Below are positions 53,721 to 64,000 of a DNA stretch of 64,000 nucleotides, one piece after another. A model generated the notes under the pieces. The model worked only from the letters and a program-made list of their open reading frames with translations, was not told where the DNA came from and did no database searches. Origin of the DNA: Escherichia coli (GTDB lineage Bacteria > Pseudomonadota > Gammaproteobacteria > Enterobacterales > Enterobacteriaceae); assembly GCF_003018115.1 (NCBI RefSeq), contig NZ_CP027457.1; one strand, 5' to 3'. The position numbers and the translations under genes were made by a program. Positions within the stretch are counted from its first letter, which is position 1. Each line of letters starts with the position of its first letter.

Positions 53721-54698
<978 letters not shown>

Positions 54699-54892
54699 TT
54701 ATCGTTATGATCTACAAAGGCCACCAGCATAACAAATCCGTGGTCGGTGGCAAAAAAAGCAGATTTCGCTTATTAAAACCACACATTGATTGAAGTTTGA
54801 ATAAACGCGCGATTTTTTAAAAAAGTTTGTTGACCTCAGGTCATGATTTCCCTAAATTAGCGCCCGTTCCAGCAAGACAGGAACGACAATTT

Positions 54893-54980
54893 GGTGAGGT
54901 GTCCGAGTGGCTGAAGGAGCACGCCTGGAAAGTGTGTATACGGCAACGTATCGGGGGTTCGAATCCCCCCCTCACCGCCA
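54893..54980 (+). tRNA. serX: tRNA-Ser (anticodon GGA), serX-type
   Basis: 88-nt GGTGAGGTGTCCGAGTGGCTGAAGGAGCACGCCTGGAAAGTGTGTATACGGCAACGTATCGGGGGTTCGAATCCCCCCCTCACCGCCA; long variable arm, encoded CCA; adjacent to ghrA. Confidence 0.97.
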
Positions 54981-54984
54981 GATT

Positions 54985-55021
54985 ATAAGCGCATGTTATT
55001 GTTTAACATGCGCTTTTTTAT
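54985..55021 (+). terminator. rho-independent terminator of the tRNA-Ser gene
   Basis: AAGCGCATGTT-ATTGTTT-AACATGCGCTT stem followed by TTTTTTATTTTT. Confidence 0.8.
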
Positions 55022-55129
55022 TTTTCCTTCCAGACAGTATGCCATCGGGTATGCCATCTGAAACCGGTTTATATGCCCCGCGATCATATCTTATCGGACA
55101 ATTTCCGATCTTTGAGCATACTGGCAAAG

Positions 55130-55971
55130 CTATACTGCCAGCATGTCAGGATAGTGTTTTGCGATAATATCATTCAGTCTGTCAACCAGTTCTGGTTTTC
55201 TGAACGTGATATGCGCGGAGCCCTTCTTAAAGTATCTGATGCTGAACATCTCATCTTCATAGTCCTCTTTTCCCTGAACAGATTGGATATGGTCATCCAG
55301 ATGAATGGTGATGTTTTCCCGGTTGTCGGGGATCGGTTTGCCGCTGAACAGGTGCAGCATTCTTTCCAGATCGGCAAGTCGATCGGCCTGTTGCCCGGTG
55401 ATAAGATGCCCCCCCACCGGTCCCACCTCACCAGATTGTTGACGATAATTTTACTGCCAAATTTGCAGGGTGAATTGGTTTTGTAATTCCAGCTCAGTCC
55501 CCTGAAAACGTTGATCACCCCTCGCTCAAACACTTCATCTTTGTTCTGGTGCAGTTGTTCAAACGTGCTCAGGATATTCGCTTCGCTGATTTCCGGAAAA
55601 TTATCGTACTCCAGTGACCGGTACCATGTATCACGGGCTTGTGCATCCATTAATGACAGCATCCCTGAACGTTGCATCAGGTCACGCCAGATTTCGCGGT
55701 CAAGGTTGTGGGTGATGGCTTTCATTGCGGTTTCCGGTTTCTCCATGAGCCAGCAGCCACAGCGAAAATCCTGTTTCATGGCCCAGTCCAGTGCGGTTTT
55801 ACCTCCGATGCTTTCCGCCAGCACCGAGATTTCTGCCAGTTGCCGGATAAGCGTGTCGATTTGCAGCAGTGTACTTTTTCGTACAGCCAGAATGTGGCGG
55901 ATACTGGTTGAGCAGATAACGTCCGTATGCCCGTTGACAACTTCCAGACGAGAGGCTGTGATATCAGACAT
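55130..55971 (-). pseudogene. uncharacterized island protein split by a -1 frameshift at a G7 tract (265-aa ORF 55174-55971 plus 98-aa ORF 55130-55426)
   Basis: Two overlapping same-strand ORFs switch frame at GGGGGGG (plus-strand C7, 55409-55415); an 8-G tract would give one ~330-aa protein; family not recognised. Confidence 0.6.
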
Positions 55972-55982
55972 AATCGATTATA

Positions 55983-57403
55983 TGAACGCATCCCGTTTGC
56001 AAAGGCATCCATTGTTCTGACATCGACGGTAGGTTGCAGCTTTATATCCGGCTTTATTGCAGCCCGGAAGCTGCGAGCCCCTATGTAATTCGCCGACTCA
56101 CGCCTCATTTCCTCAGCGGGCTTTAGGCCCAATCGATTATCCAGGTTTAGTGAGTCACGGTCTTACCTGTCTTTGTCATCACGCTGGCTGCCAGAGCAAC
56201 CTTTCTGCATTCACCCTTTTGTAAAGAGTTTATGTTTATCGGTATCAGCGATTAATCAGGCCTGATACTGACATGATTTTTGTCGTATTTACGTCCGTGA
56301 GCGGCTATTGCCCACACCGTTCGCGCCAGCTTGTTTGCCATTGCGACGATTGCCACGCTGGCCGGACGACGCTTTTTCAGTTCGGTTATCCATGGACCAG
56401 GTTCTTTGGTCAGTAATGCTGCCGCCCTTGCACCATGAATAAACAGGGTTCGCAGATATTTATCACCACGTTTGCTTATTCCCAGCAGGCGGATTTTTCC
56501 TCCTGAGCCTGTCTGTCTGGGCACCAGACCGATAAACGCGGCGAATTCCCGTCCCGACTTAAAGGCGGAGGCGTCTCCCATCGTGGCAACGGCAGCGGTG
56601 GCGATTAACGGCCCCACGCCTGGGATGTTCAGTAACCGCTGACAGGTTTCATTCTGTCTGGCTACCGCCTGCAACTGCTTCTCAATGTGGTCAAGATGTT
56701 CATCAAGTTCAGTAATTCGCTGATATTGTTCATCCAGCATGTTTATCAGGTAGAGCGGTAGCCGCTCCTTCAGACGCTCCAGGGCTTCCGGCACCTCCTT
56801 CGCCAAAGCAGCACGCCCCTTGTGCGTCGTTTCACCAAATTCCAGCAAGAGACCGTGAAGCGCGTTTATTTGTGCTGTCCTGAACTTCACCAGTTGCTGG
56901 CGCATTCGGTGTAACCCCAGCGTAGCCTGTTGCTCCTCGCTTTTAACGGCGACGGATTTTACCGGCTGCTGAACCGCCAGCCAGATGGCTCGGGCGTCCA
57001 TCACATCGTTTTTATTTCCCATCACGAATGCTTTGACGAACCGGCCTTTGAGTAATCTGACCTTATGTCCCAGTTTCTGAAGCTCACGCGCCCAGTGATG
57101 AGAACCCCCACAGGCCTCCATGCCGATAAGGCAGGGTTCACGGTTGCTGAAATATTCAAGGAATTTCTCACGCTTAACCTGCTTATCGATAATCTCTCCG
57201 GTATGTTCATCAACGAAATGCACCTGCATAAGATGTTTTGCAATATCAACCCCGACAGGGATATATTTCATGGTGTGGATCCTCCAGTCTGTTGGGAGCG
57301 AAACGCATCCCGTTGGGCACGATGATGCCGGAAATCTGCGGGGATCCACACTCATCTACTTAATCCCCGAGCGGCTCATTTCATAATGTTGGGATGCGTT
57401 CAT
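55983..57403 (-). mobile_element. IS110/IS1111-family insertion sequence (~1.42 kb)
   Basis: DEDD-type IS110-family transposase ORF bounded by a perfect 13-bp inverted repeat ATGAACGCATCCC (55983-55995) / GGGATGCGTTCAT (57391-57403); exact termini uncertain. Confidence 0.75.
56252..57271 (-). CDS. IS110-family transposase/recombinase
   Basis: ORF 56252-57355; start at MKYIPVGVDIAKHLMQVHFVDEHTGEI... typical IS110-family N-terminus, C-terminal LGISKRGDKYLRTLFIHGARAA region. Confidence 0.88.
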   Translation of the reverse strand: MKYIPVGVDIAKHLMQVHFVDEHTGEIIDKQVKREKFLEYFSNREPCLIGMEACGGSHHWARELQKLGHKVRLLKGRFVKAFVMGNKNDVMDARAIWLAVQQPVKSVAVKSEEQQATLGLHRMRQQLVKFRTAQINALHGLLLEFGETTHKGRAALAKEVPEALERLKERLPLYLINMLDEQYQRITELDEHLDHIEKQLQAVARQNETCQRLLNIPGVGPLIATAAVATMGDASAFKSGREFAAFIGLVPRQTGSGGKIRLLGISKRGDKYLRTLFIHGARAAALLTKEPGPWITELKKRRPASVAIVAMANKLARTVWAIAAHGRKYDKNHVSIRPD

Positions 57404-57484
57404 TACATTTCCTTTTTGCAGATAAATGAAAACGCCAGCCCTGTTCAGGCTGACGTCAGTGGAATAAAGTCTGGTGAGTGAGAT

Positions 57485-57682
57485 TCACCGGTTCTGGTGC
57501 AGAAGCTGCAGTTGGCGCAGGGTACGGATATCCTCCCCGGCCTGTTCAATACAGGGCAACAGTGCTGCCGAATCCGTTTTATCTTCATCGTTGTCAAAGA
57601 TAATCCCCGATTCGCAGTCGATATTGTCCTGCAGCCACGCAATCAGAATATCCAGTGCTGTTTCCGTGGTTAATGATTTCAT
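57485..57682 (-). CDS. small conserved island protein (DUF957/YeeW-like)
   Basis: ORF 57485-57727; start placed at MKSLTTETALDILIAWLQDNIDCESGIIFDNDEDKTDSAALLP... to avoid overlap with upstream ORF; family name from memory. Confidence 0.6.
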   Translation of the reverse strand: MKSLTTETALDILIAWLQDNIDCESGIIFDNDEDKTDSAALLPCIEQAGEDIRTLRQLQLLHQNR

Positions 57683-57693
57683 GTTGTTCCTGG

Positions 57694-58182
57694 TTACCAG
57701 TCGAAAGTGGGTAAATCCGGCAGACATTCGGCGCTGGCATCCAGATGAATGAGACTGACGCCATAACGTCGGGTAAGTGTGACAACCAGACGGCGGAACG
57801 TTTTTGACAGCCCCAGGCGTTTAAGCCGCAGAACCGGGTATGACCACGCACCGGTACGTAACAGATATCCGCTACCTGTGAAATGAATCCATTCTGATTC
57901 GCCAGTGTCATTCGTCTGATGTGACAGCGAATACAACCAGGCGTTGTCCTTTGCCGTGATATGCGCGGTACTGCAGCGTATGCCGGTCAGGGCAGCAAAT
58001 GGTGGCGTGCGCTCTGCTGATGTCCGGTCAGATTCATCAACAACACGAAGGGAGTAGCCATTGTCGCAGGCCACGTTAATCAGTTCAGCGAGATTAACAC
58101 CATCGACGTCAACGACAATTCGTCCCATGTTCAGCGCCTGCACGTTAACGCTGTCTGCTTCCAGCGTCAGGGCCAGTTTCAT
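57694..58182 (-). CDS. conserved island protein downstream of CbtA (DUF5983-like)
   Basis: 162-aa ORF MKLALTLEADSVNVQALNMGRIVVDVDGVNLAELINVACDNGYSLRVVD...; start overlaps cbtA stop (ATGA). Confidence 0.65.
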   Translation of the reverse strand: MKLALTLEADSVNVQALNMGRIVVDVDGVNLAELINVACDNGYSLRVVDESDRTSAERTPPFAALTGIRCSTAHITAKDNAWLYSLSHQTNDTGESEWIHFTGSGYLLRTGAWSYPVLRLKRLGLSKTFRRLVVTLTRRYGVSLIHLDASAECLPDLPTFDW

Positions 58183-58556
58183 TGTTTCGCCCCCGGATGT
58201 TTACCCAGGGTAATGTTATTTACCGTTCTGTAATTGTCGCGGGTCATCAGGCCTGTCGCCCGGCGGGCCCGGAGGATATCGATGCTGTTTATTAACTGAG
58301 AGTGGGTACAGGTGCTGAATCCCGGCTGGTCGGTACGCACCAGTGCGTATTTTTCCACGAGAAAGTTCACCGCATCGCACAGTGAAATGCCGGCCTCAAT
58401 ATGCTGCTCAATCACACGTTCATCAGCGAACGGTGTGTCATTCAGCGTAAGGCCGTAGTGCTGGTCCAGTAGTCGGGAGAGCAGTGTCTGCCAGATGGTG
58501 ACGGGAGACGGGCTGCGCGATGCCTCCCGTACGTGTGTATCGGGTAATGTTTTCAT
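58179..58556 (-). CDS. cbtA: type IV toxin-antitoxin system toxin, CbtA/YeeV family (cytoskeleton-targeting)
   Basis: 125-aa ORF MKTLPDTHVREASRSPSPVTIWQTLLSRLLDQHYGLTLNDTPFADERVIEQHIEAGISLCDAVNFLVEKYALVRTD... near-identical to remembered YeeV/YkfI/YpjF sequences. Confidence 0.9.
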   Translation of the reverse strand: MKTLPDTHVREASRSPSPVTIWQTLLSRLLDQHYGLTLNDTPFADERVIEQHIEAGISLCDAVNFLVEKYALVRTDQPGFSTCTHSQLINSIDILRARRATGLMTRDNYRTVNNITLGKHPGAKQ

Positions 58557-58645
58557 ACTGAAGATTTTCCTGATATGAGAGATTAAATTTTGAGGAGAGT
58601 GGTGCTGTAGCGCACCGGGCCGGAGCAGACGATTATTTCGGTGGT

Positions 58646-59014
58646 TTACTTTTTCGTTTCTGGCGTCGGATAAACAGCCATATAAACGTAACCACAGCTG
58701 CCGAGGGTGTCGGCTTCGCAGGTCAGCCCTCTGGCATACAGCGTGACGGTATGCTGATGGCTGGGGCTGAGTTCACCGCTGGTGAGCATGAGTTCCAGTT
58801 GTTTCATCAGCAGCGGAAAGGCCTGGTCCAGATGGTACGCATCCGCGTCGCTGAACCGGCCTCTGATACCGGCGCGGTCTGCAAGGTAATGCAACCGGTT
58901 ACCCTCCTGCACCAGACGTGCCCCAAAACAGGGCGTCACGGTGCAGGGTAGCCCCCACCAGGGGCGGTCGTTGTTATCGTCGGGATGCGTTGTCCCGGGG
59001 AGAGTGTCTGACAC
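58646..59014 (-). CDS. cbeA: type IV toxin-antitoxin system antitoxin, CbeA/YeeU family
   Basis: 122-aa ORF MSDTLPGTTHPDDNNDRPWWGLPCTVTPCFGARLVQEGNRLHYLADRAGIRG... Confidence 0.9.
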   Translation of the reverse strand: MSDTLPGTTHPDDNNDRPWWGLPCTVTPCFGARLVQEGNRLHYLADRAGIRGRFSDADAYHLDQAFPLLMKQLELMLTSGELSPSHQHTVTLYARGLTCEADTLGSCGYVYMAVYPTPETKK

Positions 59015-59093
59015 GATAAAATCCTCACAGAAAATTGGTTAAGAATGGTCCGGTGGTGGCGATAATTCTGCTCTTCTGAATGCCCTTCCAGAC

Positions 59094-59315
59094 TCAGTTC
59101 AGGGTGACGCTCATCAGCCGGACATACGGACCGAAACTGTCCTTACGGCGTTCTGCAAACACAGCCAGCACACCGGGAATATCCTGCACTTCACGGCCGG
59201 TATATGTATCCGTGCTACCGTGCCAGCGGTATTTACCGGTACAGAACGGAAAAAGACGGGATGCAGGATGCTGACGGTGAATACGCATGGCTTCACCACG
59301 GGGGATGATTTTCAT
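59094..59315 (-). CDS. DUF987 protein, YeeT-like
   Basis: 73-aa ORF MKIIPRGEAMRIHRQHPASRLFPFCTGKYRWHGSTDTYTGREVQDIPGVLAVFAERRKDSFGPYVRLMSVTLN. Confidence 0.85.
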   Translation of the reverse strand: MKIIPRGEAMRIHRQHPASRLFPFCTGKYRWHGSTDTYTGREVQDIPGVLAVFAERRKDSFGPYVRLMSVTLN

Positions 59316-59401
59316 GAGAATAGTCCTCCTGAATGTGAAAGTAAGAAACAGCTGAGAAAGAGAAACTGAAGTGATATGAAGGTGATTGTGACGGTGACGG
59401 G

Positions 59402-59893
59402 TTAAAGCAGTCCGTGTTCCGCAAAGGAGAAAACCTGGCTGCCACCGACTATCAGATGGTCCGGCACCCGGATATCCACCAGAGCCAGTGCCTGTACCAG
59501 ACGTTCCGTGATAAGGCGGTCTGCCTTGCTGGGTGTGACTTCACCGGACGGGTGATTGTGCGCCAGCACCACGGCAGCGGCATTGTGATACAGGGCGCGT
59601 TTAATCACTTCCCGGGGATGGACTTCCGTGCGGTTGATGGTGCCGGTGAAGAGGGTTTCACCGGCAATCAGCTGATTCTGGTTGTTCAGATACAGCACCC
59701 GGAATTCTTCACGCTCCAGTCCCGCCATGTTAAGAATCAGCCATTCCCGTGCCGCACGGGTGGAGGTGAAGGCCACGCCGGGTTCATGAAGATGGCGGTC
59801 CAGGGTTTTCAGGGCCCGCAGAATGAGACTGCGCTCGCCGGGCGTCATCTCTCCGGGCAGAAAGGAAAGCTGCTGCATTGTTCCTGCCTCCAT
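59402..59893 (-). CDS. RadC-like JAB-domain protein (YeeS/YfjY/YkfG family)
   Basis: 163-aa ORF with JAMM-like motif AVVLAHNHPSGEVTPSKAD; start may be internal Met (MQQLSFLPGEM). Confidence 0.85.
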   Translation of the reverse strand: MEAGTMQQLSFLPGEMTPGERSLILRALKTLDRHLHEPGVAFTSTRAAREWLILNMAGLEREEFRVLYLNNQNQLIAGETLFTGTINRTEVHPREVIKRALYHNAAAVVLAHNHPSGEVTPSKADRLITERLVQALALVDIRVPDHLIVGGSQVFSFAEHGLL

Positions 59894-60379
59894 TCAGTCG
59901 ATGATGCGCATAATGGCGCTGCATTCCGGATGCTGCAGGGCGTAATCCCGCAGCCGGTAATAATGGACCGTCATGGCATAACACTCCGTACGACAGGCAT
60001 GATGACTGTACGTCATCAGACAGGCAGCAATGCCGGCGGCTTCCGGACTCATTTCAGCGCGGTTACCGTTCATGGCATTGAACAGTACCCATTTTTCGTC
60101 ATCATCGTCATCCGGTTCAGGTGCCATAAATGCCCCGCCGTTGTTCAGGGTGTACAGATTCCAGATACCACCGCAGTAGTCTTCGCACAGACGGTCCATC
60201 CAGCCGAAAACACGGGGCTCCAGGGTCACCCACTGTGGAATGAGGCCAAAATGCTGCGGCCAGAAGCTGATGCGCTGTTCATCAGGGACTATGGTGGCAA
60301 CCAGCTGAGGCTGGTCATTCCCTGATGCAGCGGTTACGGAAACAGAAGGAGTGGTGGAATTATGCAAGACGGTTGTCAT
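59894..60379 (-). CDS. antirestriction protein (KlcA/ArdB-like; YfjX/YafX family)
   Basis: 161-aa ORF with acidic patch PEPDDDDDEKW; immediately upstream of RadC-like gene as in CP4 prophage remnants. Confidence 0.8.
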   Translation of the reverse strand: MTTVLHNSTTPSVSVTAASGNDQPQLVATIVPDEQRISFWPQHFGLIPQWVTLEPRVFGWMDRLCEDYCGGIWNLYTLNNGGAFMAPEPDDDDDEKWVLFNAMNGNRAEMSPEAAGIAACLMTYSHHACRTECYAMTVHYYRLRDYALQHPECSAIMRIID

Positions 60380-60470
60380 GAGATGATTCCTTATAAAAAG
60401 TAAATGAATGGAAGAAACCCCGGGGGAAGGGACAGACGTGAGTCAGAACTGCGCTTTCAGGGAAAAGGCA

Positions 60471-61289
60471 TCAGCACATGCTCTCCAGCAGCGTTTCAGC
60501 CATCACCCACAATGCGCGGTTGAGCTTAATATCGGTGTCGATGCTGTGAATGGCCCGGGTATGGATACGTTTTCCTCTGGCACTGCGACCGGAAATCCCG
60601 CCTTTCAGCATATTCTCCTGGATGGTCTGATAAGCACTCCACAGGTCCTTACCGTAATCCTCCCGGCGTCGTGGCGTCAGAATGTCGGCGGTGGTGACGG
60701 GCTGATGTTCGTCACCATAACGGTAAGTCAGTGCCGCCTGTGCCAGCGCCTGGCGTGCCGGTGGCGGCAGAATCAGCGACTGCATGGCATCACGTTTCTC
60801 TTCAATCCGGTCAAAAACCCCCACCACCTCGTAAGCACCTTCAATCACCCTGTCCACCACGTTTCCCCGGTGTGGCACCCGGACTTCTCCCAGCGACTGA
60901 CCGCAGACCAGGCCATTGGTGCAGATGGCACGAAAATATCCGGGTAACATCTGGTAGCTGGATGAACCGTCATGGGAGTTGAGCAGAATAATTTCAGGCA
61001 CATGCTGACCGGTTATCTGTCCGGCCCGCCGCAGACGCAGCATATGTTTGGTATATTCCCGGCGGCTCTGGTCGCGCACACGGGTCTGGCAGGCGAAGAA
61101 CGGCTGAAAGCCTTCCCGCTGCAGATTTTCCAGGACGGTGATGGTGGGAATGTACGCATACCGTTCACTGCGGGAGGTGTGCCGGTCTTCTCCAAAAATA
61201 CTCGGGACGTGGTACATCAGTTCTTCGCGTGTCAGTGGGCGCTCCCGACGGATCTGATTTACATGACCAAAACGACTGGCTAATTGCAT
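60471..61289 (-). CDS. DUF932-family protein (YafZ/YfjQ-like)
   Basis: 272-aa ORF MQLASRFGHVNQIRRERPLTREELMYHVPSIFGEDRHTSRSERYAYIPTITVLENLQREGFQPFFACQ...; family name from memory. Confidence 0.7.
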   Translation of the reverse strand: MQLASRFGHVNQIRRERPLTREELMYHVPSIFGEDRHTSRSERYAYIPTITVLENLQREGFQPFFACQTRVRDQSRREYTKHMLRLRRAGQITGQHVPEIILLNSHDGSSSYQMLPGYFRAICTNGLVCGQSLGEVRVPHRGNVVDRVIEGAYEVVGVFDRIEEKRDAMQSLILPPPARQALAQAALTYRYGDEHQPVTTADILTPRRREDYGKDLWSAYQTIQENMLKGGISGRSARGKRIHTRAIHSIDTDIKLNRALWVMAETLLESMC

Positions 61290-61329
61290 ACTTTGCTCCT
61301 TATGAATGAGTTAGCGGTATAAACGAAAA

Positions 61330-61357
61330 GGCCGCGTCTCCCGGAGAAGACGCGGCC
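61330..61357 (-). terminator. rho-independent terminator downstream of the DUF905-like gene
   Basis: Perfect 10-bp stem GGCCGCGTCT/AGACGCGGCC; minus strand then reads TTTTCGTTT. Confidence 0.65.
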
Positions 61358-61378
61358 TGATGGATGAAATGAAGACGT

Positions 61379-61671
61379 TTATTGCCTGAGAATTCCCTCA
61401 CTGGCGAGATACGGATTTAGCTGTTTTCCGGCATCAGATTCAAAATTCCAGCACCGCCAGCGCAACTGACCTTCAGCGTTGCGGATCACCAGACGAAAAT
61501 GCGTACCCGGGTCATCCTTGATAAACACATTGCGGTAAGCGGTTATGACAGCAACCGCCTGCCCGTATGAGAAAGATCCTTCAGCCAGGACATACTCTGT
61601 GTGTAACCCGGCATATCTGGTTTCTCCTGATAAATAGCCTCTGCCACAACGTATGGCAGAGGCTGAAGCAT
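61379..61671 (-). pseudogene. DUF905/YkfF-like small gene with apparent frameshift
   Basis: Frame A from ATG ([42 protein letters not shown]) shifts to frame B (...[60 protein letters not shown]), which carries the remembered HFRLVxR...WRxWNFExDAG signature. Confidence 0.55.
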
Positions 61672-61688
61672 GAAACTGACTTCAGGGA

Positions 61689-62144
61689 TCAGTTAACATT
61701 TTTTCCGGAAACGGTAATCAGCAGTGGATGGTAGTCCTGGGGATCGAAAACCGATAACGGCAGACTGACACGATGGCCGTTACTTTCTTCAGTTGCTTTA
61801 ATGATTTCGGTTGTGGCGACATTTTCCACGCACTCCGTTTCCAGAAATGCGTCTGTGGTTCGCGTGGCATTACTGTCACCAAAGGCTTCCGTTTCCATTT
61901 TTCTGGTCACCAGCGTCTGACCATATTTGTCTTTGAGTTGCAGAGTGATGGTGAGGGGGCCAAATCCTTCATAGTTTCCGCCATTATCCAGCCGGAACTG
62001 GTAGGCACAAATATTTCCCGGGAGCCATATCGTATCTGTATTGCGTATACTGATGTAACGTTGATCCTGTGCCCGGAGTGGGGCAGACCACGTTAACCCC
62101 AGAATGAAGGCGGTAATCATGCAGGTTTTGAACAGGTGAATCAT
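61689..62144 (-). CDS. secreted/periplasmic protein of unknown function
   Basis: 151-aa ORF with signal peptide MIHLFKTCMITAFILGLTWSAPLRA|QDQ; no recognisable motif. Confidence 0.6.
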   Translation of the reverse strand: MIHLFKTCMITAFILGLTWSAPLRAQDQRYISIRNTDTIWLPGNICAYQFRLDNGGNYEGFGPLTITLQLKDKYGQTLVTRKMETEAFGDSNATRTTDAFLETECVENVATTEIIKATEESNGHRVSLPLSVFDPQDYHPLLITVSGKNVN

Positions 62145-62219
62145 GGTATTTACCTCTCTGAGTCATGACGATGACACTGACAAATCAGGTGATAAAACGT
62201 AAAAGGCGCAGAATAGCCG

Positions 62220-63941
62220 TTATGCCGGTAACTCCGGGGGTAATGCTTCTTCCAGTCGGTTAACCATCTTGCCGAGATGGGATACATCATATTCCATGAC
62301 GGGGCGTTGCCTGATGATACTGACCACCAGTGGTTTGATTAACATATTGGTCGCGGCCCGTTGTTGTATACCGGCGGCGAAAATGATCTCCAGAGCATTC
62401 TGATCGATAACACGGGCCAGATTCGCGTTCAGATTTTCAATCTCATGTCCGGTCAGCAGGAAACTGCCGGCAAGCCATGTCACCTGCTCCTGAATCATTG
62501 CCAGAATTTTGACGCGATCTTCTTCAACCAGCGCTCCGGCAATTTTTCCTGATACAGCGGAGGCAATCATTCCCCCCAGAACACCGCCAACCACACGTCC
62601 TGTCAGTGCACCAAATGGTCCCAGTGGACTGAACAATATCCCGCCCGCCACTGACCCGACAGCACCACCTGCCACACCGGAAGATGCCACGGCAAGATTC
62701 CTGATGAACTGCGCACCGGAGATCCGTCCCCGCAACATTTTGATCATGTCAGGGCCGGTTGTGACAGCGACCAGTGCCAGAGATGTCACCAGCGTACCCT
62801 TCATCACTTTGTTCAGGGCACTGATATTTCCTGCACCGGTCCCCTTCTGAAGCGCCTGCCGGACAGTCGGGCTGGCCGTCGAAAAATCAATATGCTTCAG
62901 CATACCCTGAACAACACTGAGCCGGTGAAGTTGCTGGGTTGTGACGTAGACAGCCAGTGTGCGGGTGAAGGTTTTTCCTGCCTGGACAGCAGCTGTCTGC
63001 AGGGCAGCATCGCGATCGCCGGTGCTGAGCCAGAAGACCGATGCCGTCAGGGCAAAACTGATCCCTCCGGCCGCCAGACTGACAACCGCCCCCTCGGCAA
63101 TATCATAAGTGACCGATTCGATGGTCCCGAACCGGGTGATATTACGGGCCTGGGTATAAGTCAGATGTCCCCGACGAATCAGCCGGGACGCTTCTGCGGG
63201 ATCGGTTACACCGGGTACTTTACCTTCGCGGATCTTATTCTTCATGGTTTCCACAGCGCCGGCATACTGATCACGGGGGACTTCCAGTTGCATGGGACCA
63301 TGATTTCCCATGTAACGATACTGTCCGTTTTGTCCGTCGAATGCCGCACCGACGCTACGGGCTGCAGTTGAACAATATTTCGTCTGGATTTCTGTTCCGC
63401 TGACCAGTCTGTCTGCTCCATTTCTGGCATTATTATCACCGAGGATCCGTGCGTTTTTCAGACGGACTCTGTCGACAATATGGTTTCCCCGTTCAGCGGC
63501 AAACCCATGTCCCTGCCCTCCGGAAGCAAACATTTTCTCATTTGTACTCCAGGTTTCCGGCAGTTTCATGAGAATCAGACCATTCGCCGTTGCATCGGAA
63601 ATAAAACCGGTGTAAGAACGTTCATAAATGTCCTGACACAGTGTTTCTGTTTCGCGACAAAGAGAGGAGCAGTACCATTCCGGATCCGGCTTATGATTTT
63701 CCGGGGCATGATGTACTTCTGTCAGCCCGCAGGAGGCACAGATACGAAGCTCATCCACGTGGTGGAATGATACAAAACGGCGGCCTTCTGAAAAGGGGTA
63801 CCAGTCACCGCCGTCCAGGCAACGATCGAGAAAATCGTCATTCGCTTCCGGTGATAAATTCAGGCGGTTCCGGAAGAGGGTTTTCAGTTCATCAGGGGTA
63901 AATGACAGGCTCTCTCTCAGCTTTTCGTTGAAACCCGCCAT
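62220..63941 (-). CDS. large uncharacterized protein with N-terminal Cys cluster and C-terminal glycine-zipper membrane region (possibly YeeR/YfjW-like); reading frame stays open to the window end
   Basis: 573-aa ORF from first in-window ATG; frame continues without stop through 63942-64000, so true start may lie outside; GGAVGSVAGGILFSPLGPFGALTGRVVGGVLGGMIASAVSG segment. Confidence 0.65.
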   Translation of the reverse strand: MAGFNEKLRESLSFTPDELKTLFRNRLNLSPEANDDFLDRCLDGGDWYPFSEGRRFVSFHHVDELRICASCGLTEVHHAPENHKPDPEWYCSSLCRETETLCQDIYERSYTGFISDATANGLILMKLPETWSTNEKMFASGGQGHGFAAERGNHIVDRVRLKNARILGDNNARNGADRLVSGTEIQTKYCSTAARSVGAAFDGQNGQYRYMGNHGPMQLEVPRDQYAGAVETMKNKIREGKVPGVTDPAEASRLIRRGHLTYTQARNITRFGTIESVTYDIAEGAVVSLAAGGISFALTASVFWLSTGDRDAALQTAAVQAGKTFTRTLAVYVTTQQLHRLSVVQGMLKHIDFSTASPTVRQALQKGTGAGNISALNKVMKGTLVTSLALVAVTTGPDMIKMLRGRISGAQFIRNLAVASSGVAGGAVGSVAGGILFSPLGPFGALTGRVVGGVLGGMIASAVSGKIAGALVEEDRVKILAMIQEQVTWLAGSFLLTGHEIENLNANLARVIDQNALEIIFAAGIQQRAATNMLIKPLVVSIIRQRPVMEYDVSHLGKMVNRLEEALPPELPA

Positions 63942-64000
63942 GTTTCTTTCATACCAGGCATTGTCCAGTAGCCAGTTTCCGTCTGCCAGTTCAAATTCCC

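Follow-up and report, generated by a model that had tools for sequence, protein, structure and literature searches.

The ArdB/KlcA-family gene and the RadC-like gene analyzed here occupy, with high probability, the second and third positions in a conserved operon-like block of a CP4-type island, in which ArdB would block type I restriction and the RadC-like protein would consist of a JAB zinc-hydrolase domain. Both are minus-strand genes of the window (the whole 64,000-nucleotide stretch of Escherichia coli DNA that was analyzed) and belong to an island of ~71 kb at a tRNA-Ser gene (serX). The pair as such is already known: its ArdB half comes from an experimentally characterized clade, and yafX-ykfG and yfjX-yfjY are a textbook feature of CP4-type islands. 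Because the arrangement has long been known and is extremely common in E. coli islands, no novelty attaches to it, and the value of the present analysis lies mainly in the correct annotation of the ArdB-RadC pair. Short RadC-like JAB genes are among the commonest accessory genes of E. coli; their constant placement behind ArdB may offer a clue to their biochemical role.

The RefSeq/PGAP annotation was read from the chromosome of E. coli 2014C-4135 (NZ_CP027310.1), which is 100% identical to a 1.7-kb query around the pair, and its coordinates were converted as window = L001 + 38999. Based on this annotation, the far end of the island carries a P4-type integrase beside ycdU, ~71 kb from serX, while serX marks the attachment-site end and was the sole match in an Rfam scan of positions 54000-64000. 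In minus-strand order, the genes are DUF905, DUF932, ArdB, RadC, DUF987, CbeA, CbtA, DUF5983 and DUF957, followed by an IS110 insertion, a frameshifted DUF4942 gene and serX (Table 1). The block from DUF932 to DUF957 is bracketed by terminator-like hairpins on both sides. The hairpin after the DUF905 gene is probably the upstream boundary of a transcription unit that probably begins with the DUF932 gene, and the hairpin after the DUF957 gene is probably its downstream boundary; no terminator-like sites were found between the ArdB and RadC-like genes. A promoter scan returned promoter-like matches at chance level only.

We propose that these eight genes, in this order, represent the block that CP4-type integrative islands of Enterobacterales carry at their tRNA-proximal end, and that a single transcript would serve both ArdB and the RadC-like protein. 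Paralogous blocks of K-12 have been handled as operons, namely lfgABCDE (PMC10846083) and yafX-ykfG-ykfH-yafW-ykfI (PMC5371832). The latter, in CP4-6 at thrW, shows the identical order of ArdB, RadC, DUF987, CbeA and CbtA beside a tRNA, and the order in CP4-57 of K-12 (yfjX-yfjY-ypjJ-yfjZ-ypjF, now lfgABCDE) also matches the block in the window. The gene neighborhood shared with CFT073 and K-12 runs from DUF932 over ArdB, a 15-nt gap and RadC to DUF987, CbeA and CbtA.

Table 1. Features around the ArdB-RadC pair, in window positions and listed in minus-strand order. Counts refer to 80 related loci obtained by scanning a single genome for each species (about 58 Enterobacterales genomes; ArdB identity 63-96%).
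Feature	Position	Strand	Evidence and remarks
Terminator-like hairpin after the DUF905 gene	61329..61358	-	13-bp stem, 9 GC pairs
DUF932 gene, upstream neighbor	60471..61289	-	PF06067, E=3e-49; in 62/80 related loci
ArdB/KlcA-family antirestriction gene, 161 aa	60379..59894	-	ORF; PF03230; PGAP 'antirestriction protein' WP_047651721.1
15-nt spacer ATGGAGGCAGGAACA	59879..59893	-	contains GGAGG Shine-Dalgarno for the RadC-like gene; first three bases are the ATG at 59893
Short RadC-like JAB-domain gene, 158 aa	59402..59878	-	PF04002; PGAP radC WP_001186725.1
DUF987 gene (YeeT/YkfH/YpjJ family), downstream neighbor	59094..59315	-	PF06174, E=3e-38; in 68/80 loci
CbeA/YeeU-family type IV antitoxin gene	58646..59014	-	PF06154, E=1e-53; in 71/80 loci
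CbtA-family toxin gene	58179..58556	-	PF06755, E=6e-61; in 69/80 loci
DUF5983 (YeeW-like) gene	57694..58182	-	PF25638 and PF19419; 4-nt overlap with the CbtA stop
DUF957 gene	57485-57682	minus-strand order	annotation
Terminator-like hairpin after the DUF957 gene	57431..57457	-	
tRNA-Ser(GGA), serX	54893..54980	+	Rfam scan and annotation; attachment-site end of the island

According to the annotation, the island contains IS elements (the IS110 insertion), an integrase fragment and frameshifted copies of DUF4942 and darT. It thus looks partly decayed, which makes it uncertain whether entry functions are still under selection today. These same signs would fit a reading in which the pair is a non-functional leftover of a cryptic element, but we regard this as highly improbable: neither ORF is disrupted, their motifs are complete, both genes show purifying selection (dN/dS 0.08-0.33 versus their paralogues), and the 'cryptic' copies of K-12 were active once expressed (PMC2836571). 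The ArdB and RadC-like ORFs are real, intact genes and not chance ORFs. Their minus-strand extents of 60379..59894 (161 aa) and 59893..59402 (163 aa, taken as the longest ORF) were correctly given by an earlier sequence-only reading of this DNA. An antisense ORF on the plus strand (59414-60325, 303 aa) was rejected as a shadow ORF; it has no Pfam match and varies in length from 39 to 314 aa across the 80 loci.

The ArdB ORF is preceded by AAGGAA 8 nt 5' of its ATG and encodes a small, acidic protein (161 aa, pI 4.74, with 20 D+E against 9 K+R). Profile searches upheld the families proposed for both genes in the sequence-only reading, with PF03230 at E=2e-37 (127.6 bits, cut-off 25 bits; domain at residues 66-161) for ArdB and PF04002 at E=6e-45 (152.5 bits, cut-off 22.1) for the RadC-like protein. 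At the structure level, ArdB matches PDB 2WJ9 over residues 9-161 (E=3e-98) and the KlcA NMR structure 2KMG over residues 22-161 (E=9e-21). It shares family and fold with CFT073 ArdB (PDB 2WJ9; encoded by ORF14 of a pathogenicity island) and with K-12 YafX and YfjX (LfgA), to the latter two of which it is 67-70% identical. Compared to the 157-aa CFT073 protein, identity is 88% overall and reaches 135/137 residues (98.5%) from residue 25 on, the differences being concentrated in the N-terminal tail of ~24 residues. The relatives also differ in length (161 aa versus 157 or 152), and the 2WJ9 chain has the N-terminus of the CFT073 157-aa protein. More distantly, IncP-1 KlcA (2KMG) and the ArdB proteins of pKM101 and R64 share PF03230 and a conserved C-terminal ...I.R.ID; within residues 22-161, the ArdB of the window is 41% identical to KlcA.

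Because its core is 98.5% identical to the tested CFT073 protein, we infer that the gene in the window encodes a blocker of type I restriction. CFT073 ArdB, YafX, YfjX and KlcA relieve type IA, IB, IC and ID restriction in vivo by 10- to 9250-fold with little anti-modification (PMC2836571, Serfiotis-Mitsa 2010), whereas in vitro the same proteins neither inhibited nor bound EcoKI, and ClpXP was not involved (PMC2836571). For R64 ArdB, the action is independent of the recognition site, leaves type III systems and BREX unaffected and includes a partial in vitro inhibition of EcoR124I and EcoAI (PMC10149784); inhibition of BlihIA in vitro was clear (PMC12429846). ArdB is not a DNA mimic. By analogy to these proteins, the ArdB of the window would block DNA cleavage by type I enzymes, but not methylation, whatever their recognition sequence. 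Judging from the near-identical and paralogous proteins, it would thereby shield unmodified incoming DNA. The antirestriction label that the sequence-only reading gave to this half of the pair is thus well founded, given the near-identity of the folded region to tested CFT073 ArdB and the activity of the K-12 paralogues YafX and YfjX (PMC2836571). The same reading had called for an anti-restriction assay, and assays of this kind are published for CFT073 ArdB, YafX and YfjX (PMC2836571).

We then turn to the junction of the two genes, which reads ...ATC GAC TGA ATG GAG GCA GGA ACA ATG CAG CAG... on the coding strand. The ArdB stop codon (TGA, 59896-59894) immediately precedes an ATG at 59893-59891, and the sequence-only reading had concluded that there is no intergenic space. 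Stop and ATG indeed abut in the sequence; the best-supported start, however, leaves a 15-nt spacer with a Shine-Dalgarno sequence. RefSeq/PGAP places the start at 59878 (158 aa, MQQLSF...), and GGAGG lies 8 nt before this ATG, with no comparable site before 59893. In the alignment, M6 of the long ORF is the position at which every annotated homologue starts (K-12 YkfG and YfjY, CFT073, and the copies on a Citrobacter plasmid and an IncHI plasmid). A 15-nt spacer is present in 26/80 related loci, and in just two of these, the closest relatives L007 and L008, does an ATG abut the stop, as in no other of the 80 loci; the remaining 24 show CCG, ACG, AAG, CTG and the like at this position and keep GGAGG or GAGG together with the downstream ATG.

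Shine-Dalgarno position, annotation and conservation all speak against the longest-ORF start at 59893 (163 aa), which was rejected; it is very unlikely that this ATG serves as the start, and translation would begin at 59878. With this start, the genes are tightly packed with a 15-nt gap rather than abutting. Because the ribosome-binding site sits in the 15-nt spacer, translation of the RadC-like gene would probably be coupled to that of ArdB.

The RadC-like protein matches the RadC structure PDB 2QLC (E=5e-25) and exceeds the cut-off of TIGR00608 (150 bits, cut-off 133.85). Against the housekeeping RadC/YicR equivalog NF000642, it scored 160.9 bits, below the 180-bit cut-off, and aligned only to model positions 88-211 of 212. 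The predicted product thus belongs with the short RadC-like proteins made up of the JAB domain alone, rather than with the housekeeping RadC. While the C-terminal JAB domain is homologous to that of YicR (about 220 aa), the N-terminal half of YicR is lacking. The JAMM zinc motif HxHx7Sx2D is intact (HNHPSGEVTPSKAD, residues 107-120), and the motif residues together with E62 and E79 (163-aa numbering) are invariant among five homologues. Identity amounts to 98% with the CFT073 copy, 82% with YkfG and 73% with LfgB/YfjY. In K-12, LfgB (YfjY, CP4-57), YkfG (CP4-6) and YeeS (CP4-44) are equally short, JAB-only proteins encoded after ArdB, with 73-82% identity and an identical metal motif; among them, an activity (MqsA degradation) is reported for LfgB only. 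By analogy, the protein of the window would be a JAB/JAMM zinc-hydrolase domain alone, with all its metal ligands intact, for which a metalloprotease is the best-evidenced option.

Purified LfgB degraded MqsA and casein in overnight digestions; the authors themselves point out that the protein was insoluble and that contaminating proteases were not excluded (PMC10846083), so the evidence for LfgB as a protease is weak. This work nevertheless bears on the 'anti-defence' label that had been extended to the RadC half, which finds no support here: the sole experimental report on a paralogue indicates a protease in a stress response (PMC10846083), and our literature search found no case of a RadC-like protein countering any defence system. 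An anti-defence role of the RadC-like protein would be guilt by association only.

The LfgB results could also carry a wider explanation, a host stress-response module as described for LfgA/LfgB. Here, the resident pair would work for the host instead of for DNA entry, and the RadC-like zinc protease would degrade the antitoxin/repressor MqsA and thereby derepress rpoS, promoting survival of oxidative, acid and heat stress, with ArdB merely co-transcribed. We consider this possible, if rather doubtful. YfjY/LfgB is 73% identical to the RadC-like protein of the window and holds the same operon position; furthermore, an lfgB deletion was H2O2-sensitive and could be complemented, MqsA binds the operon promoter and purified LfgB degrades MqsA (PMC10846083). 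Apart from the weakness of the biochemistry by the authors' own caveats, however, the RadC-like protein is closer to YkfG (82%) than to LfgB. Moreover, the pair occurs in about 58 Enterobacterales genomes, mostly in several copies and always on mobile islands, which suits an element-serving role better than the regulation of one host regulator. The stress-module reading and a type I restriction-blocking ArdB within a CP4-type island block are compatible and not exclusive.

Among 5426 complete E. coli genomes, 4846 (about 90%) carry the ArdB-RadC cassette, the median copy number being three. Nearly all copies are chromosomal (13410 places versus 7 on plasmids). Across the 80 Enterobacterales loci, a RadC-like gene lies downstream of ArdB on the same strand in every case (80/80). 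The gap measures 9-15 nt in 67 loci (11 nt in 31 and 15 nt in 26), and in five further loci the N-terminus of RadC is extended, its in-frame ATG lying 3-13 nt past the stop. Seven loci carry an insert of 228-270 nt with an ORF of 72-77 aa between the two genes, and in one locus (Serratia marcescens), a 1844-nt insert contains a SmaI-type restriction-modification system. The small ORF of the Enterobacterales insert and the one between ArdB and RadC on a Pseudomonas plasmid were compared as candidate counterparts and are not homologous; neither matches Pfam.

This invariant adjacency, with its Shine-Dalgarno-containing spacer of 9-15 nt in Enterobacterales islands, invites the idea of a two-component anti-restriction unit, in which ArdB would recognize type I enzymes, while inactivating them or processing the DNA would fall to the JAB enzyme. 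We judge this to be improbable. On this view, the JAB enzyme would be the 'additional participant' postulated to account for the good in vivo but poor in vitro performance of ArdB/KlcA, with ArdB, for example, directing HsdR or the translocating complex to the hydrolase. A distant Pseudomonas plasmid likewise carries ArdB and RadC with a single small gene between them, and a missing cellular factor is repeatedly invoked in the ArdB/KlcA literature. The K-12 hosts of the in vivo assays all carry RadC-like paralogues; if true, a two-component unit would hence explain why ArdB activity is strong in vivo and weak in vitro.

On the other hand, an obligate ArdB-RadC pair is unlikely because insertions are tolerated (a small ORF in seven loci, a whole type II restriction-modification system in one), so that tight coupling is dispensable, because ArdB/KlcA occurs on thousands of plasmids without a RadC gene next to it, and because R64 ArdB inhibited BlihIA in vitro on its own (PMC12429846). 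An AlphaFold2 model of an ArdB-(GGGGS)6-RadC fusion also gave no confident mutual placement (pTM 0.46), which is a weak test in view of the 24 paired rows and the linker. In this model, both domains fold, with a block-averaged pLDDT of about 70-95 in their cores, while the linker and the RadC N-terminus are disordered.

The downstream part of the block raises a further alternative, namely that ArdB and the RadC-like protein are accessory to the CbtA/CbeA toxin-antitoxin module and modulate the toxin or stabilize the island without any counter-defence. The shared transcription unit and the presence of CbeA and CbtA in 71 and 69 of the 80 loci would agree with such a role, and LfgD/YfjZ has been tied to MqsR toxicity (PMC10846083). 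Toxicity remained unchanged, however, when yafX-ykfG-ykfH were co-expressed with yafW-ykfI or yfjX-yfjY-ypjJ with yfjZ-ypjF, and these published experiments already largely refute the accessory reading (PMC5371832). In addition, the ArdB family has a demonstrated, unrelated activity (PMC2836571). An accessory function in the toxin-antitoxin module therefore appears very unlikely to us, and we retain the restriction-blocking ArdB with its co-transcribed JAB-domain protein as the preferred interpretation.

Finally, we examined how the pair relates to plasmids, since the sequence-only reading had called this tight arrangement common in the leading regions of mobile elements. ArdB/KlcA homologues occur in at least 4970 plasmid records, mostly of conjugative plasmids, and nearly all of them are less than 40% identical to the ArdB of the window. 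In a DNA-level plasmid search, most matches were confined to the last 200 nt of the RadC gene, a conserved 3' stretch. This search was replaced by a protein query of fused ArdB and RadC cores, chosen because adjacency had to be countable: a query cover of at least 80% is possible only with both genes nearby. Among the 5000 best-scoring plasmid records, 59 have both genes side by side, and these include mis-filed chromosomes, K-12 F-primes with CP4-6 and large IncHI-type plasmids with the whole ArdB-to-CbtA block.

The adjacency was likewise lacking in all six plasmid types inspected. An IncF (yubI), an IncFII, an IncU/X6 KPC and a Vibrio plasmid carry ArdB/KlcA without RadC; an IncP plasmid has klcA-klcB-korC and no adjacent RadC; and in the leading region of an IncL pOXA-48-like plasmid, the ArdB-like and RadC-like JAB genes lie 6 kb apart, the latter paired with DUF3085. 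The claim of a common leading-region arrangement is therefore not supported by these counts. The tight ArdB-RadC pair is a hallmark of the tRNA-proximal operon of chromosomal CP4-type islands, near-invariant in Enterobacterales islands and rare on plasmids, which makes a 'leading-region cassette' the wrong frame for it. Across the ~71-kb island from ycdU/int to serX, no relaxase, coupling protein or T4SS genes are annotated, a result at the level of annotation in which an oriT could be cryptic. Given the rarity of the adjacency on plasmids and an island with no annotated relaxase or T4SS, the families are those of leading regions, but the tight arrangement is a trait of CP4-type islands.

Comparing the locus to known plasmid systems, the families are shared with the anti-defence islands of plasmid leading regions, where KlcA/ArdB is listed as an anti-restriction gene (Samuel et al. 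2024, PMC11541004), whereas the pair studied here lies in a chromosomal island without annotated relaxase, oriT or T4SS. Plasmid klcA/ardB genes, nearly all of which are less than 40% identical to the island type, reside either in leading regions or, as part of klcA-klcB-korC, in the kilC operon and have no adjacent RadC. The IncL pOXA-48-like plasmids carry genes for an ArdB-like protein, DUF4942, a RadC-like JAB protein and ssb in one orientation beside mobA/traI. A further parallel is the DUF3085-RadC pair of broad-host-range plasmids, for which a complex is predicted only (PMC12826799): as in the window, a RadC-like JAB gene on a mobile element is joined to a small upstream partner, which in that pair is DUF3085 instead of ArdB.

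In Serratia marcescens MSU97 (NZ_MJAO01000028.1), a full type II restriction-modification system lies exactly at the junction of the ArdB antirestriction gene and the RadC-like JAB gene, which therefore tolerates cargo. This cargo is a defence system, composed of an N6_N4 methyltransferase (PF01555) and, convergent with it, a SmaI-family endonuclease (PF17411). At seven Enterobacterales loci, ArdB and RadC are separated by a conserved ORF of 72-77 aa with the motif EPFLHFPAGT..IW.WFE, for which no Pfam match was obtained. An 88-aa ORF occupies the same position on a Pseudomonas silvicola plasmid but is unrelated to the Enterobacterales ORF.

Coordinates of the features in the window and at single related loci (L numbers; L001 and L087, chromosome stretches of the same island; L004 and L005, IncL plasmid)
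Feature	Location	Strand	Position
Type II restriction-modification insert, S. marcescens MSU97	L024 5457-7305		ArdB-RadC junction
72-77 aa ORF	L019, L020, L021, L025, L032, L048, L055		~228-270 nt past ArdB stop
88-aa ORF, P. silvicola plasmid	L094 5458-5724		ArdB-RadC junction
Antisense ORF, 303 aa	window 59414-60325	+	overlaps both ArdB and RadC genes
Type I restriction-modification, DarT/DarG, dGTPase, CDI	L001 34701-41701 and L087 44372-48183		past window end
Leading-region genes, IncL pOXA-48-like NZ_MK249857.1	L004 5999-6932 and L005 568-1008
IrmA-family gene	window 61689-62144	-	upstream, beside DUF905
Large hypothetical protein	window 62220-64000, continuing past window end		between Ag43 and IrmA
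IS110-family element and frameshifted DUF4942 gene	window 56252-57271 and 55130-55971		serX end

We also considered the long antisense ORF over the pair as a gene and rejected it as a shadow ORF, because it matches no Pfam family and its length varies across the 80 ArdB-RadC loci.

The island that bears ArdB encodes a type I restriction-modification system of its own, in which a DarT/DarG pair, its DarT frameshifted, separates hsdS from hsdR; an anti-phage dGTPase and a CDI locus (cdiBA) are encoded there too. The combination of a type I restriction enzyme and ArdB, a blocker of type I restriction, on one island is noteworthy.

The leading region of the IncL plasmid shares several families with the island module, but their order differs: the gene before the RadC-like JAB gene is DUF3085, not ArdB, and the ArdB-like gene, DUF4942, DUF1380 and ssb share one orientation, towards mobA/traI.

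Upstream in the island, an IrmA-family (interleukin-receptor mimic) gene adjoins DUF905, an arrangement typical of uropathogenic-type islands. The neighbouring hypothetical protein comprises 838 aa in RefSeq, of which the 573 aa visible in the window matched no Pfam family; its C-terminal half is rich in Gly/Ala and probably spans the membrane. At the opposite, serX end, an IS110-family element sits between DUF957 and DUF4942. This insertion and the DUF4942 frameshift are signs of local decay beside an otherwise intact operon.
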